From Ureaplasma sp. Hg1 (lineage in GTDB: Bacteria; Bacillota_I; Bacilli_A; Mycoplasmatales; Mycoplasmoidaceae), in NCBI GenBank assembly GCA_021378535.1, contig JAACJV010000002.1, forward strand, positions 27,876 through 91,875: 64,000 nt of DNA. The letters are read 5' to 3'. The position numbers were made by a program, and so were the translations under genes. The first letter of the stretch is position 1, and every line of letters begins with the position of its first letter. Shown one piece after another: positions 14,105 through 21,772 of this stretch. The notes beneath the pieces were generated by a model, which saw only the letters and a program-made list of their open reading frames with translations, had not been told where the DNA came from and made no database searches.

Positions 14105-17100
14105 ATGAGTAGAACTTTATTAGAATTACGAACAATTTATAAGACATATGAACTTGAGGGCAAGGAAATAAAGGTCTTAAACAACATTAATTTAGATCTT
14201 GAGGAACACGTTTCTCTAGCTATTTTAGGTAATATTGATAGTGGTAAAACATCACTTATTAAAATAATGGCGCATTATATTGAACCATCTTTTGGTGAAG
14301 TAGAATTATTTCCATTCGATAAAACTCAGCCAGCTTTAGTTAATAGTGTTTTTCATGAGACATCACCATTCGAAGTAGCTAGAAAAAAACTAGGACCATC
14401 AACTACTGTTGGAGAGATGATTGAACTTATTTATGATTCAAGAAGAAATTCAAGCGAAAAAGAAGAATTGGAAAAATTAATCGAGGCTAGTGGCTTAATA
14501 AAAGTAAATGAAGAAGAAACAATAGATAAATTAAGTCATTCAAATTACAATAAAGCTAAATTAATTTCAATTTTAGCTAATAAACCAGCACTTGCTTTTT
14601 TTGACGATGCAATTAGTGATTTAAAATACGGAAATAAAATGAAATTCACTAAATTAATGGGAGAATATATTAGAAAACACAAAATGACTGTTGTAATGAC
14701 AGCGAACGACCCAGAAGATGTTGTACATATTTGTGATGAGTATATTGTTTTAGCAAAAGGTAAAATTGCGACATTTGGTAATGTTGAAATTCCTGATGGT
14801 TTTGTTAATTTTTCTGAAAGTGTTAGTAAATGAGTTGAAGTTGGTAAGGTTGAAAATCACGAAAACGTTGTTACATGATTTAAAAACATATTCAGTTCTA
14901 ATAGAAAAATTCTTGAAGAACGAAGATTACGAGACGCTGCGAAAAATCAATTATTATTACCAGGCGGAGAACCCGTTGATGTACCTAATGCTAAAGTAAT
15001 TGAAGCTAGTGGAAAATTAAATGATGATGATATCGAAGATAACATTGATAACCCAAATGTTGCGCCATCAGGGCGGGGTTCTTTTTTGGATCGTATCCGA
15101 GTTAGAGAAGGTCGTAATGAAGAGGCAGAAGAACCGCAAAATGACGCTCCTAGCGGTATTGAAACAAATAATGACGAACGTCGTAGCCAAATGGATAGTA
15201 TGAAGACAATGCAATCATTCACTGTTAAAGAAGGCTCAACCGATGAACAAAAAGAGTATCGTAAAAAAATAAAAGAAATTGGTAATGACGATGAATCAAG
15301 TAAAAGAAGTGAACGTGCTGCACGATTAGCTAGAATTCAAGCAATTGAGGGTAAAAATAGTCCTAGTAGCAATAACCCTGAAACGGCTAATTTTGCCAAC
15401 GAAACTCCTGAACAAAGACTAGCAAAGCGTAAAGAGATGCTAGAAAGAATCAAGGCTAGAGAAGGCGGCGAAGCAACCCCAGATAATACAAATGATCATA
15501 AACCAGAATCAGCAGAAGAAAGACTAGCAAAGCGTAAAGCGATGCTAGAAAGAATCAAGGCTAGAGAAAATGGTGAAGCAACTCCAGACAATACAAATGA
15601 TCATGAAGCAGAAACTCCAGAACAAAGACTAGCAAAGCGTAAAGCGATGCTAGAAAGAATCAAAGCTAGAGAAAATGGTGAAGCAACTCCAGATGATACA
15701 AACGATCATGAAGCAGAAACTCCAGAACAAAGACTAGCAAAGCGTAAAGCGATGCTAGAAAGAATCAAGGCTAAAGAAAATGGCGAAGCAACTCCAGACG
15801 ATACAAATGATCACGAAGCAGAAACTCCTGAACAAAGAATAGCAAACCGTAAAGCGATGCTACAAAGAATTAAAGATAAAGAAGAAAACCCAGAATCATC
15901 AAATGAAGAGATAGTATCTAAAGAAGAAAATGAATCTGATGCTCATAAACATTTATCGCCTGCAGAACAAAGAGCTATTCAACGTAAACAAATGTTGGAA
16001 CGTATCAAAGAAAAACAAGCAAGTATTAAAGCGGGCCAAGTTGAAGTATCAAAAAAGAAGGAAGTTTTAAGTGCAGCTTCAATGGAACGTCGAAATAGAT
16101 TGGCCGCTATTAAAGCACAACAATCTAAAAAATCAACTATTCAATTAAAATTAGAAAAAGCAAAAGCAAAAAAAGAAGCTGAAGCATTAGCTCAAAATAA
16201 TGCAAATGTTAACGCTAATTCATTTGCTACTGAACAACATGTAAAAGAAGTGGATAATGTTGCACAAAAGCCGCAGCTTCCTAAATCACCTAGTGCTGAA
16301 CGTGCAGAAAGATTAGCGCGAATTAAAGCTAAGGAAAATAATTTATCTCCAGGAACAGCAATTACGGCTGAAAAACCGAAATTGGAAAAACCAGTTTCAC
16401 CATCACCAGTTGTTAAATCTGATGCTGCAATTGAACGTGCAGAAAGATTGGCACGTATTAAAGCAAAACAGCAATCAATTGCAAATAGTACCAAAATAGA
16501 ACACAAACCAACTACAAATACAATTGGAAATTCTACAGATCACAGTACTAAAACCCACGCTCCTACTGCTACCCACGCTCCCACTACCCACGTTCCTACT
16601 ACTCACGTTCCTACTACTCACGCTCCTACCACTACGAATGTTCATAAAGCTGCGAAACCAGTTATTGTTAGAAAAGAAAAATTAGTTGCAGAACAATCTC
16701 ATAATTTGGATGCAAAAGCAGCAGCACGTAAGGCAATGTTAGAAAGAATTAAAGAACGAGAAGTTACAACAACAAAATCTGACGTTAAAACTACAAATGC
16801 TAAAGCGATGATTGATCGTATAAAAGCAAGAGAAGGCAAACTTGTCATCGATGAAAATACTAAACCTAAAAAACCTCTTTCAATCGAAAGACAAAAGCAA
16901 AATATTGAACGTATTGCAGCAATGGGCAAAGGTAAAGATGATTTCAAGGAAATTGATCATATCAAAACAGAACGTAATCGGGCAAATCGCTTGGCACAAG
17001 CAGAGATTCAAAGAGATCAAACAATTAAATCATCAAGAATCCAAAAAGAAAATGCCGGACGAGCTCAAGTTCAACATGCCGAACAATTAAGAATTCAGAT

Positions 17101-18688
17101 GCAAGAATTAGAACAATTAAAAAAGAAACAACTTGAAATTGCTGAGCAAAAATCTGAAATACAAAGATTGGCACAAGAGGCTGAAATGGCGAAAATGCGT
17201 CAAATAAATAATAGTAACATTCGTAACGCAAGAATTAGCGATGAAAAATCACTTTTGAATCAACAAGCCTTAATGCAAAAAGTAAATTTCCGTGCACAGG
17301 AAATTGAAGATAGATCAAAACTTGAATTAAATAGAATTGAAAAAGAACATTCTATTAAAATAGGAATCTTACAAAATAGATTAGACGAAGAAGAAAAACT
17401 TCGTAAAATTAAAGAAAAAGAAGCTCAATTATCTTTAGAATCTGCAGTCAAACAAGCTGAACTTGTTTCCACAAGAATTGCGAATGAAAAATCTCTGGAA
17501 TTAAAAAGTACTCGAGAATCGCAATTAGCTAATCAATTATTAGAAATTGAAAAACTTGTTAAACAAATGGAAGCTTCTAGCGGATCTCGTAACGATGAAT
17601 TGATGAAAAACGCGATTGAGATGAAATATAAGGTTTTACATCAACAAGAATTAGCAAATAGAGCCGCTCGTGATGCAACGCTTGCGAATCAAAAATTAGC
17701 TAGACAAGAAAGAATAGCTAAAGACTTACGTATTCAAGCTGAACGAACTAGAAAATATAAAGTTGAGGCCGAACGTAAAAATTCAGAACATATGAATGAT
17801 ACCAATGTTGCTGGTCTTAATGAAATCAAGTTACAAAAGATGAGAATTGAAAAAATGTCAAATGATATTTCTGAAATCAAAGATTTAATTAAAGAAAGCA
17901 TTTCAAGTGGAGACATTAATGCAATGAATCGTATTAATTCATTAATTACGAATTCAAGCGTAAATAAAAATTTGAGTCCTTCCCAAATTATGGTGGGTCA
18001 CAATCCTGGAGGTAATTATAACTTAAAACCAGTATCTCAATACACACCGGGAGCTCAAGCCACTAAAGTAGTTGGGGCAAATGGAGTTGTGATGTCCAAT
18101 GTAGTAAGAACTGCGCCACATTATAAACCAATGAAGAATCCAATGATTGTAGCAAATAGAGCTAATAGTAAACAATATTTAACCGGTATTGATAAACAAA
18201 TTTGAGAATCAGAACAACGTTTGATGGATTTGCGCTTATTAAAACATAGAGAGGCAGAAAGTATTGTTCAACAACAAATGGAAGACGAACGTCAAAGAAT
18301 ACAAGCTGAGCGATTACGTCTAGAAGAAGATGAAATTATTAATGAACGAAAATATCTTCATCAACAACAAAATAGCTATTTACAAAACAAACACTTAACT
18401 CGATATCATGATTACGGTACATCTAACGCTTCGTACTATCCTCAAAGAAAACCAATGCAATATACTGCTGGCGATAGAGAAAAAATTCAATCAAATAAAT
18501 CTGGCGATATTAATGCATATGAATATGGCAGATTAATTAATCAGGCAACGCCGTATAAATCAACATCAAAATATCAAGGTTCTACTCAACGAGTAAGTCA
18601 ATCTGCGCAACGGTTAAGTGAAGCGTTCCGCGAAGCTAATAGACCTCTTAATTACGAAGATATGGAAAATTATAGAAAAAAAAAATAA
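14105..18688 (+). CDS. 1527-aa chimeric protein: N-terminal degenerate ABC-type ATPase domain fused to a repeat-rich coiled-coil region
   Basis: ORFs 14105, 15086 and 18221 are in one frame. I read 14834..15086 codon by codon and found only TGA. Walker A GNIDSGKT is intact. The signature is LSHSN, Walker B is FFDD and the H-loop is TAND. I saw no signal peptide or TM segment. Confidence 0.8.
15401..15880 (+). repeat. in-frame tandem repeat, 105-bp unit (35 aa, ETPEQRLAKRKAMLERIKARENGEATPDNTNDHEA), about 4.6 copies
   Basis: AGACTAGCAAAGCGTAAAG recurs at 15416, 15521, 15626 and 15731, with a diverged copy at 15836. The period is exactly 105 bp, and the internal copies are nearly identical at nucleotide level. 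Confidence 0.9.
16553..16636 (+). repeat. in-frame 15-bp repeat encoding TH(A/V)PT x5
   Basis: ACCCACGCTCCTACT-type units encode THAPTATHAPTTHVPTTHVPTTHAPTT. Confidence 0.8.
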
Positions 18689-18747
18689 GTAACGGCAATA
18701 ATAGAATTTATGGAGAAAAATATAATTCAATAATAAATTTAGAGGAA

Positions 18748-18969
18748 ATGGCTAACGAACAACGCAACAATGTTGAATGAGCGCAAGATAATGTTGAACA
18801 TTCTCAGTTTAACCCACCACAATTAATCATTGAGGATGATGTAAATTTTATCCCCAAGGAATTATCTTACAAAAATACATTTTTGCAACAGGATAAACCA
18901 ACTAACCCTAATGTTAAATTAGCACTAAAAAGTGCTGATCGCCTAGTGAAAGGTTATCTAAAAAAGTAA
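18748..18969 (+). CDS. hypothetical small protein, 73 aa
   Basis: ATG 18748 follows an AGAGGAA RBS. One in-frame TGA occurs and the TAA stop is at 18967-18969. It was too short or TGA-split to appear in the track. Confidence 0.45.
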
Positions 18970-19112: not shown

Positions 19113-20627
19113 ATGCAAAACACAGCTTATGATACGATTTCTAAATATAAAAATATAGTCGAACAAAATATTGTCGACGGATTATTTGATTACTTTGGTC
19201 GTATCTATTACAAAATTGATCCTAATAATAAAGCGGGGGAAGTTAAAAATGAATATTTGACAACCCGTTATATGGATGAAGCGTCGCGACGTGAGAAAAG
19301 TTGAAAGCGAAATTTAATTTGAAGTTTATTATTCTTAGTTTTATTCGCAGTGGCTTTTGCTTGTGTTTGGTTTTTAATTGGAAATTCAGGGAATGATTTT
19401 AAAAACTATGATAATTACATTTATATCCCTAGTTGATTATTAGTTGCTATACTATTGTTTATTGGTGTACTTTTAATGATATCTACAATAGTTAATTTTA
19501 GTAAATCGTTTATGATGATGCGTTATTCAAAAGATCAATTAAAAAATTGAAACAATTCTTTTTACTATTTTACAAAAAGAATTGAAAAACAAGGAATTAA
19601 AGATGCAATTGAATATGGTATATCAGATTTAATTTTAGATAAGCATACAGCAAGTTATGAAAGAACTATTTATGCATTGCACAATCGATTATATACTTAT
19701 GCAGATATTCCAAAAGATGCAAGAAGAACTAAATATCACAATTTAACTTCTGGTGTTTATAAAAATAATCCTTTTACAATTTCTTATAGTGAATGAGAAT
19801 GGTTTCGTGAAGGACGTGAAATAAATGAGGATGTTGATGCAGCTTATCATACAATTAATGTTAATTTAAAGAGACGTTTACATCGTTTTGAGGATTCAAT
19901 GATTATTTTATCTATGGATATTGACGCTAATCCTAATCTTAACTTTATTCTAAATAATTTTAATGGGAAGAATATAAAATTACAAAATAATGTTTTTAAC
20001 TCCCTATTCAATTTAGTTGTTAATGACCAAAATTTAGCTTACAAAGTTTTTACTCCTTACGTTCAACACACTTATTCGAGATTAAAAACTTGATCACCAG
20101 TTTCTAAAATGATAAGACAGGTCATCAAAGAAGGCAATAAATTATATGTTATTATAGACGGTTTTAGCGATTTCTTTAAATTCAATAAAATAACTGATCC
20201 GGAATTAAATATTATGTTTAATACTTCAGAACGTTTAAGTTTATCGGAAATTAAGGTTGGTACATTAGATGAAACAGCTTCGCTAATGACAGAATACATT
20301 TTAGAAGAAACCGATCTATTATATACGATTTTAGAATTAGGAGCTTCATTGCCAGTTGATCCAGAAGTTTTAGTTTTAAAAGAACAAATTAGATCTCAAT
20401 ACATGATGAATCACCGTCCTAGAAATAATTTATTTGATGTTATTGCAAATAGAAGAGCACGAGGCTTAGGCCCTGAAGCTGTCGATTTAATGAATAACGA
20501 TTTTCAAAGAAATCGAATGCCAAACAATGCGCCTTTATGAAATGCCCAACAAGCTCCACTATTTAGACCATTAACAGTTACATCGTCTAGAATTGATGAT
20601 TCCCCAATTGGTGGAATTAAATATTAA
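19113..20627 (+). CDS. membrane protein, 504 aa, two TM helices near the N-terminus
   Basis: GGAGG RBS is present. ORFs 19113, 19899 and 20109 share a frame, and the gap 19305..19898 read codon by codon has only TGA. TM segments are LIWSLLFLVLFAVAFACVWFLIG and WLLVAILLFIGVLLMISTIV. Confidence 0.75.
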
Positions 20628-20730: not shown

Positions 20731-21250
20731 TTGTTTACAAACGGAAGACACCTACTCACTAATAAAAAAATAAGATTATCAGAAATTGAAGTAGGAAATA
20801 ATAATTATTTTGAAATAATCTAATTAACAATTTTGAAATGAATTCAATAGTTGTAAATGATTGATAGAGTTTCATTCATTACGTTTATTGCATAGAGAAT
20901 TTAATATTATTTTTATTAAATATATTGTTTGTGCTAATTTATCTCTAATAAAGTGAAGAGTATGTTGTTCTCAAAAAGCTGTCCAAAGAACAGGTCCTTT
21001 ATAAACTTAACTAAAATGATAAAAAATGGGATAATTTAAATGTCACATAAATTACTTAAATTCAGTTAAATTTAATTTACGAGAAGTTAAAACATTTATA
21101 TTATAAAAACTAATATTAAAAATTATTATAATGTTTGCTATAATGATTTCATAATATTTAATTAATTTTAAATGGTATTTAAATATAGTTAGTAAATTCA
21201 ATTTTTATCAAATCGAAAATTTAAGATATAATTAAGCAATGAGGAATAAA

Positions 21251-21772
21251 ATGATAAAAAAACTATTTAGCGAAAGTAAATTTAGTATTGGAATTATAGT
21301 GGTATCTGTGGTACTTGAATTTTGTTTTGCTATTGCAATTATTTTAAATCATGAAATTGCCCAATATTTAATTTATGGTGCAATGATCCCTTTGGGATTA
21401 ATTAATTTAATTTCAATTGGATGTTTTAGTTATATTATTTATATTGATCGAAAAAAATATGATATAGGTGAAATATTTATAGTACTCTTAGGTCATATCT
21501 TTTTAGCGTTATGTTTTGCTCAAATTATTATAAATTACATACAACCTTTTGAAGGCGAATACACATCCAATATTACTAGTTTAACATCCGCTGCATTATG
21601 AATGATGTTGTTAATAATTGGGATTATGGGCATCTATAGTTTTGTATGTTTTTATAAAAGTCTTAATATTGAAAAATCAAATATTAAGATTTCAGTTCTT
21701 ATTGACGACGACGATAAAAAAGATCGTTTAAAAAAACAAGCGTTACGTATGGATAAAAAAAGAGGGAAATAA
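21251..21772 (+). CDS. small multi-pass membrane protein (173 aa)
   Basis: GAGGA RBS lies 5 nt before ATG 21251; an upstream ATG at 21239 is also in frame. It continues through TGA 21599 to TAA 21770-21772. Several hydrophobic helices are present. Confidence 0.6.

Follow-up and report, generated by a model that had tools for sequence, protein, structure and literature searches.

Why would a wall-less bacterium keep an ATP-binding cassette (ABC) ATPase domain that has lost its catalytic residues, joined to some 1,300 further residues? The question is raised by a gene at positions 14105-18688 of the plus strand in a 64,000-nucleotide stretch of the genome of Ureaplasma sp. Hg1 (the window), which lies on contig 12 of an assembly of 42 contigs and 1.155 Mb (G000, 85% complete). 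The gene is real, single and native. Its product, which we call the giant protein, is soluble and cytoplasmic and has about 1,530 residues, a length that rises to about 1,620 when the frame beyond a tract of ten adenines is added. As judged from its motifs, its N-terminal head descends from an ABC-transporter ATPase, lacks the residues for hydrolysis and for the ATP-sandwich dimer, and is still under purifying selection. On function we are more guarded: the reading that we favour, at a little under an even chance, is that of a non-transport, membrane-tethered scaffold of the wall-less cell.

The first step is the reading frame. The window has a G+C content of about 28% and in-frame TGA codons in nearly every long frame, from which it follows that the organism is a Mollicute using genetic code 4. 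Table 11 splits the giant gene into open reading frames (ORFs) of 242, 1,039 and 155 codons, whereas under table 4 they form one frame, as an earlier sequence-only reading of this DNA had proposed:

14105-18688 (+): main frame of the giant protein, 1,527 amino acids under code 4 (TGA = Trp), with its TAA stop at 18686-18688

The start is unambiguous, as a TAG is followed by one codon and then the ATG. The three in-frame TGA codons (W243, W258 and W1367) are all TGA at the aligned positions of the sole ortholog too, within the conserved peptides KWVEVGK, TWFKN and QIWESEQ. Because the 72 residues spanning the first two are the most conserved part of the giant protein, translation must pass through both. 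The ortholog is likewise a single ORF, in which the ABC domain and the tail are joined rather than encoded as separate proteins. Read with the standard bacterial code, the first ORF (14105-14833, +) stops at 242 codons, the size of a stand-alone ABC ATPase; annotators using the wrong code would miss the fusion and call these codons an ordinary 'ABC transporter ATP-binding protein'. The G+C content at third codon positions (0.176) is the same as that of the neighbouring genes (0.15-0.21), which rules out a foreign origin, and the raised G+C of the region results from amino-acid composition. An antisense frame at 14545-18003 (-), with 1,152 codons of which 30 are TGA, was taken not for a gene but for a shadow of the coding strand, which is rich in purines. 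Neither a transmembrane segment (highest 19-residue hydropathy 1.06) nor a signal peptide or lipobox was found in the giant protein, in agreement with the sequence-only reading on membrane segments and signal peptide.

The ortholog, P0002 (1,697 amino acids), comes from the metagenome-assembled genome (MAG) 'Ureaplasma sp. Hg2' and is the one full-length ortholog in public data. It is colinear with the giant protein, with an identity of 54% by BLASTP and 64% over the aligned columns of a pairwise MAFFT alignment, and its locus has identical synteny. The synonymous divergence (dS) of the two species exceeds 1, and the 4.6-kb frame is intact in both. The ratio of nonsynonymous to synonymous substitution rates (dN/dS) of 0.22 for the whole giant gene shows purifying selection; the head stands at 0.23, the junction that follows it at 0.03, the repeat region at 0.29 and the C-terminal parts at 0.18. 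Most neighbouring genes lie between 0.04 and 0.12, with 0.047 for p504, the next gene downstream.

What, then, is the head? Its extent and its motifs, placed by comparison with Pfam, PDB, AlphaFold and Foldseek and by an alignment (A6) of 13 sequences, namely the two orthologs and 11 further nucleotide-binding domains (NBDs) taken from this genome and from two loci, are as follows:

14105-14788 (+): head, degenerate ABC nucleotide-binding domain, residues 1-228 (PF00005)
14228-14251 (+): Walker A GNIDSGKT, residues 42-49, the same in the ortholog
14531-14545 (+): signature position, residues 143-147, LSHSN for LSGGQ (LEGSD in the ortholog)
14594-14608 (+): Walker B AFFDD, residues 164-168, Asp167 kept and the catalytic Glu replaced by Asp168 (AFLDD in the ortholog)
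14699-14710 (+): H-loop position TAND, residues 199-202, His replaced by Asn201 (Asn in both orthologs)

The first ~240 residues had been described as a transporter-type ABC domain, and the profile and structure comparisons agree. Pfam ABC_tran (PF00005) matches residues 25-170 at 36.7 bits (cut-off 25), and the top solved relative in a PDB search is EcfA2 (4mki, E 1.5e-11). AlphaFold given the two orthologs alone reached a pLDDT of 35; given A6 it models residues 1-228 as a confident NBD, with pLDDT mostly above 85, and does not rescue the junction. In Foldseek this model matches many NBDs at E ~1e-16, with ECF, MacB, Bce, MetN and HlyB types about equal. The fold is thus confirmed and no subfamily is singled out: across Foldseek and NCBIfam, the scores of ECF, MacB/LolD, DrrA, Opp/Nik and FetA types are much alike, many NCBIfam subfamily models match weakly, the best reaches 58 bits against a cut-off of 292, and the head falls below the ECF ATPase equivalog cut-offs of TIGR04520 and TIGR04521 (55.4 versus 330 and 46.1 versus 315 bits). 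Among the 31 PF00005 matches of its own genome, which include about 25 other NBDs, the head is one of the weakest, with 43 bits against 62-122 for most others. Two further matches are as low, at ~43 bits (G000:C40:6875-7354 and G000:C29:6018-6590); both stand beside strong NBD matches in long frames, and each is probably the second, degenerate NBD of a twin-NBD ATPase of the sugar type.

Motif by motif, the head keeps the A-loop Tyr15. Its Walker A, previously called intact, does match the general P-loop pattern GxxxxGK[ST] and has Lys48 and Thr49, but departs from the ABC pattern GxxGxGK[ST] in that Asp45 takes the place of the Gly found in each of the 11 other NBDs of the alignment. The Q-loop Gln, thought to have become His, is lost (there is no Gln at residues 78-100 in either ortholog), yet the His is only one of three candidates for the equivalent position, which is H84, E90 or A92 depending on the alignment. 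The changes first noticed in the signature, Walker B and H-loop were all borne out by the alignment with the 11 other NBDs. Hydrolysis by ABC ATPases requires a catalytic base, a gamma-phosphate sensor and a dimer-closing signature; because all three are missing, no hydrolysis would be expected, which supports the earlier view that the head is unlikely to hydrolyse ATP.

The genes downstream open a second line of evidence:

19113-20627 (+): p504, 504 amino acids, a predicted two-helix membrane hairpin (residues 72-90 and 109-127) with a weak DUF3137 match; candidate partner or anchor of the giant protein
21239-21772 (+): p177, a conserved protein with four transmembrane helices, downstream of p504

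Both ends of p504 are predicted to be cytoplasmic by the positive-inside rule, and the protein is 90% identical in the ortholog genome. Among 61 genomes of the family that were searched, p504 homologs occur in this genus and one other only. It was a search started at p504, and only this one, that brought out a probable counterpart of the giant protein in this sister genus; synteny downstream of the DUF2779 gene, the upstream neighbour of the giant gene, had given none in six other genera. There, a gene for a protein of 692-773 amino acids immediately precedes p504, with gaps of 72 and 88 bp, and, as in the window, QRPT lies downstream with fmt and DUF5385 nearby. The proteins of this kind (loci L048, L049 and L052-L058) have 600-810 amino acids. 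Their first ~230 residues are an NBD in which every motif is degraded, Walker A included, with a sub-threshold Pfam match; hhalign aligns these heads with the two heads of this genus at a probability of 95.7% (E 9e-9, 186 columns). The H-loop Asn is present in nine of nine and thus common to all 11 sequences. Their disordered tails, free of membrane segments, are acidic and rich in Ser, Thr and Asn and close with a conserved motif, KKN(L/I)IE(R/K)LY, that loosely recalls the RKAMLERIKA of the giant protein. On these grounds they are probable counterparts of the giant protein. Directly upstream of the sister-genus gene lies another, for a protein of ~440-465 amino acids and no family match (L048:10447-11763, +; L049:7937-9346, -), which abuts or overlaps it and so suggests translational coupling; tblastn found no counterpart of this protein in the present genome.

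The two genes also travel together. Both p504 and a protein with a dead NBD are present in G000, G001 and nine genomes of the sister genus, and adjacent in six genomes; both are absent from three other sister-genus genomes, and neither was found in the ten other genera (the 61-genome sample for p504, all 135 family genomes for the dead-head family). We regard p504 as probably the partner of the giant protein. The more decayed heads bear on nucleotides as well. The sequence-only reading had pictured a nucleotide-sensing head; this is now doubtful, since the probable positional relatives in the sister genus have no Walker A. For the giant protein itself, retention of nucleotide binding has about even odds.

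Could the head nevertheless serve a genuine ABC transporter, as an accessory or regulatory subunit in which the dead NBD sits on a distant permease or pairs with a live NBD, and the tail tethers or regulates? Heterodimeric ABC systems in which one of the sites is degenerate are familiar, the fold is kept under selection here, and the ~25 other NBDs of the genome are possible partners. Yet the giant protein's own Walker B, H-loop and signature are all spoiled, so that any dimer would have two impaired sites; the signature, moreover, differs between the orthologs (LSHSN versus LEGSD), and the sister-genus counterparts lack Walker A. Nor is a permease at hand: as the sequence-only reading had it, none is adjacent, the flanks being the nuclease-like DUF2779 gene upstream and, downstream, p504 and p177, which have two and four transmembrane segments and belong to no permease family, with QRPT downstream of p504 and fmt and DUF5385 nearby. 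A complete ecfA1-ecfA2-ecfT operon, which does without the giant protein, lies elsewhere in the genome; together with the lack of an adjacent permease, it suggests that the head is not needed for a resident transporter. We consider a transporter subunit unlikely.

The tail, which makes up most of the protein and is largely non-globular, is built of four parts:

14789-15004 (+): conserved junction, residues 229-300, with W243 (14831-14833) and W258 (14876-14878), 79% identical to the ortholog
15005-16876 (+): low-complexity repeat region, residues 301-924, with 13 of the 14 basic helix motifs between acidic or Pro/Thr-rich spacers
15401-15929 (+): within it, a tandem array of a 105-bp (35-residue) unit, 4.5-5 copies of ETPEQRLAKRKAMLERIKARENGEATPDNTNDHEA (Tandem Repeats Finder)
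16553-16629 (+): also within it, a TH(A/V)PT array of 15 bp x 4.9 (Tandem Repeats Finder); its place in the ortholog is taken by a Pro-rich spacer of KP(V/I)AP type
16877-17977 (+): helical region, residues 925-1291, 367 residues, Pro-free, charged and Gln-rich
17978-18685 (+): C-terminal region, residues 1292-1527, with Gly/Pro/Asn/Tyr/Gln-rich segments around a second charged helix of ~70 residues

The 72-residue junction is the most constrained segment of the protein. A helix at 252-282 is predicted in it, in a low-confidence part of the AlphaFold model. Profiles of the junction and of the C-terminal region, run against the 135 family genomes, matched this genus only, in the former case its two genomes; the PDB gave no match for junction, repeats or C-terminal region, and the tail has no paralog in its own genome. 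The C-terminal region holds the TGA-encoded W1367 (18203-18205) and is 69% identical to the ortholog.

The repeat region carries a short basic helix with the consensus (E)QRLAKRKAMLERIKA(R/K)E and a net charge of +2 to +4 per copy. The 14 copies of this amphipathic motif counted in the sequence-only reading were found again with the pattern [LIM]-x-[RA]-I-[KQRA]-[AVEDK], starting at residues 328, 408, 446, 481, 516, 551, 586, 631, 666, 737, 782, 879, 903 and 934; outside the giant protein only two ORFs of the genome contain the pattern, with a single copy apiece. The ortholog has 13 copies despite spacer turnover. The 105-bp units are 86-96% identical within the species versus 68-79% to those of the ortholog, and their peptide is conserved, which together indicate homogenisation with selection on the peptide. 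The fivefold TH(A/V)PT block reported earlier corresponds to the 15-bp array.

Residues 925-1291, the longest Pro-free stretch of the giant protein, had been described as a heptad-like coiled coil, and this description fails: at period 3.5, residues 950-1285 show no heptad periodicity (z -0.5 to 1.3), against z 3.7-7.5 for the SMC arms of a related genome as a positive control. The region, with 35% D/E/K/R and 9% Gln, instead holds 36 opposite-charge i/i+4 pairs, compared with 20.2+-3.8 in shuffled sequences (z 4.2). Because of this charge-pair excess and the missing 3.5-residue periodicity, we read it as a putative long salt-bridge-stabilised helix or irregular helical rod rather than a canonical coiled coil. 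Long charged tails also occur elsewhere on otherwise normal ABC ATPases, as illustrated by P0014, which surfaced in a HMMER search: a protein of 1,241 amino acids and Mollicute-like composition, it has two canonical NBDs followed by a tail of ~600 residues, first acidic and then Lys/Glu/Ala-rich, that includes '...KKSIERIKNKRL...'.

A protein with 14 Arg/Lys-rich helices might bind RNA or DNA, with a head reminiscent of non-transport ABC proteins such as ABC-F and ABCE1. The charge of each helix fits this, as does the near restriction of the motif to this one protein of the genome, and fmt and the nuclease-like DUF2779 gene are among its neighbours. The acidic spacers, however, neutralise that charge, the net value of the 35-residue repeats being -3 to -6; the head is one NBD and not the tandem pair of ABC-F and ABCE1, profile searches detected no nucleic-acid-binding domain, and the gene is linked to one for a membrane protein instead. 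A nucleic-acid- or ribosome-associated role therefore seems to us distinctly improbable.

The 3' end of the gene adds a complication of its own:

18676-18685 (+): run of ten A (A10), directly before the stop of the main frame (18686-18688)
18685-18969 (+): frame read with one extra A, 94 open codons ending in GYLKK, with its TAA stop at 18967-18969

This is the sole A/T homopolymer of at least ten in the 1.155-Mb assembly, where runs of eight number 378, runs of nine 26 and runs of ten one. The extension runs colinear with the ~93 residues that close the ortholog, and both finish in GYL(G)KK, with 40% identity over 45 amino acids in tblastn; its local score against the ortholog C-terminus is 76, compared with 33.9+-5.9 for shuffled sequences (0 of 2000 as high) and with 24 and 20 for the other two frames. 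The chance of 95 open codons arising from base composition is ~0.001. Because the out-of-frame extension stays open and matches the ortholog, the true C-terminus is very probably at 18969. The frame break may stem from a homopolymer error or a recent truncation, or may mark a site of slippage or phase variation, in which case the tract may toggle the last ~95 residues. In the 21 kb common to both ortholog loci the giant gene is the only broken gene. The distal part of the extension also forms an ATG-started ORF of 73 codons (MANEQRNN...GYLKK, 18749-18969, +), which gene-calling software might report as a small protein in its own right.

Mycoplasma surface-protein genes, such as those of Mycoplasma hominis Vaa and M. 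fermentans P78, are known to be switched by poly-A frameshifts, and the poly-A tract at the frame break, together with the near-identical in-frame tandem repeats homogenised within the species, would suit a size- or phase-variable surface or released antigen of the kind that many repeat-bearing mycoplasma proteins are. An N-terminal NBD of cytoplasmic type, with no signal peptide, lipobox or transmembrane segment, and a motif peptide that is conserved between species and not diversified make this a very improbable explanation. Equally hard to credit is a relic without function, in which an ABC ATPase gene in decay has been joined to low-complexity sequence that is expanding: lost catalytic motifs, the possible truncation at A10 and an evolution faster than that of most neighbours are what a relic would show, but a frame intact in two species at such divergence, the low dN/dS of junction and C-terminal parts, and a 94-codon extension that is still open are not.

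We return to the membrane-tethered scaffold. The cytoskeletal or scaffold role suggested in the sequence-only reading is still plausible, and the linkage of the gene to p504 makes the suggestion more specific. In this reading the NBD fold and the conserved junction would be kept as a docking or structural module and not as an enzyme, and nucleotide handling would be dispensable for the core role of the lineage, because the sister-genus heads have lost the P-loop. The most likely docking target would be p504, the hairpin membrane anchor encoded just downstream, because p504 is found only in genomes with the giant protein or its probable sister-genus counterpart. The 14 basic amphipathic helices, set between acidic and Pro-rich spacers, could provide multivalent binding to an anionic surface or partner; the salt-bridge-rich helix of ~370 residues would act as a spacer, ~55 nm long if it is one continuous alpha-helix (0.15 nm per residue); and the conserved C-terminal region would end the extended tether.

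Several observations weigh against this picture. Both species of the genus keep the P-loop Lys and Thr, and nucleotide binding could still matter. The basic helices have modest hydrophobic moments only, which makes membrane binding a guess. The tails of the sister-genus proteins and the giant protein do not align, tblastn of the former against this genome gave no match, and their profile scores ordinary NBDs at 45-68 bits but this head at 30 bits; beyond both being NBDs, the case for orthology is made by position, by architecture and by a single residue in common. The genomes in which p504 and the dead NBD co-occur are close kin and may reflect one or two evolutionary events, which gives no statistical proof; several sister-genus drafts place the two genes on different contigs, and in one (G067) another gene precedes p504.

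A bolder version, rather unlikely as a whole, joins the two genera: the giant protein and the sister-genus proteins would be one lineage-specific family of ABC-derived pseudo-ATPases, forming with p504 a new membrane-skeleton or tether system in a clade of Mycoplasmoidaceae. As parts of this same rather unlikely whole, the dead NBD and junction would dock on p504, the amplified basic motif, perhaps derived from KKNLIERLY, would give multivalent attachment, and the A10 tract would switch the C-terminal module on and off. The probability left over from the readings named here goes to something else that we have not considered.

How isolated is the protein? A word-index search of 5.8 billion proteins returned the ortholog P0002 only. 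Exhaustive HMMER with residues 1-300 against 1.84 billion representatives gave, below E 1e-30, just the protein itself; the next-best matches are ordinary ABC ATPases, 27-28% identical. Scans of genome collections and metagenome contigs found no relative beyond the one ortholog. A search for the motif as a repeat family, suggested with the sequence-only reading, likewise yielded no family: the DNA pattern MLERIKA[RK]E, run over 596 Gb, hit the ortholog and three other places, where ~2 are expected by chance from the information content of the pattern. The earlier statement that the architecture is not known from characterised proteins thus survives protein-index, HMMER, genome and metagenome searches that gave one ortholog. 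The giant protein is described nowhere in the literature searched, a paper on 'HG2' (PMC7301438) dealing with other lineages. Of the organism, we note that the urease alpha subunit (PF00449) was not found in the 85%-complete assembly, despite the 'Ureaplasma sp.' label of the sister MAG, and that a typical, urea-splitting Ureaplasma may not be what this genus represents.

Not all of this is new. The superfamily of the head is a known one, and Mollicutes commonly have giant orphan proteins. New here are the constraint on the junction, the probable sister-genus counterpart with its more decayed head, and the co-occurrence with p504. Among kinases and phosphatases there are well-documented pseudo-enzymes whose fold is kept for binding rather than catalysis; the searched literature held no paper on a soluble ABC domain that has lost all its catalytic motifs. 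The head described here, with its P-loop, and the P-loop-less heads of the sister genus form a natural series in which to ask what the ABC fold can do without ATP. Internal scaffolds of wall-less bacteria are known from few model species, and a giant tether protein conserved as a pair with a small membrane-anchored protein could point to an unrecognised structural system.

Set beside known systems, the head shares fold and motif order with transporter NBDs (PF00005; EcfA2 4mki, MJ0796 1l2t, MacB 5lj9, OppF/DppF-type), and with them Tyr15, Lys48/Thr49 and Asp167. It differs in the replaced Q-loop Gln, LSGGQ, Walker B Glu and H-loop His and in the P-loop Asp for Gly, and the giant protein differs in having no adjacent permease and 1,300 residues added after the domain. 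Degenerate sites are known from the heterodimeric ABC transporters TM287/288, CFTR (NBD1) and TAP1, which likewise replace the Walker B Glu and the H-loop His and keep the P-loop. In these, however, one composite site is degenerate and the partner provides a working one, whereas here the protein's own signature is lost too and the gene stands outside any transporter operon. SMC, Rad50, RecN and ABC-F/ABCE1 similarly combine an ABC-type head with long helices or with a role outside transport; the SMC/Rad50 head is split by an antiparallel heptad coiled coil, unlike the contiguous motifs (residues 42-202) and missing heptad signal seen here, and ABC-F/ABCE1 have two NBDs against a single PF00005 stretch in the giant protein. 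The sister-genus proteins have the same slot upstream of p504, the same head-plus-tail layout, no membrane segment and the H-loop Asn, and differ in that Walker A is gone, the tails are half as long and a single KKN(L/I)IE(R/K)LY stands against 14 copies of RKAMLERIKA. The helical region resembles the ER/K single alpha-helix (SAH) domains of myosin VI/X and caldesmon in being Pro-free, in its excess of i/i+4 opposite charges and in having no heptad core, with a charge density below that of classical SAH domains. HMW1, HMW2, P200 and P65 of the Mycoplasma pneumoniae group are large cytoplasmic proteins of the terminal organelle with acidic Pro-rich regions and long helices. The giant protein has no sequence similarity to them, HMW2 is a true coiled coil, none has an ABC head, and the EAGR box (PF16713) has no match in this genome, nor in the control genomes; what the giant protein does share with them is a large size, a cytoplasmic location in a wall-less cell, acidic and Pro-rich regions, and long helices.

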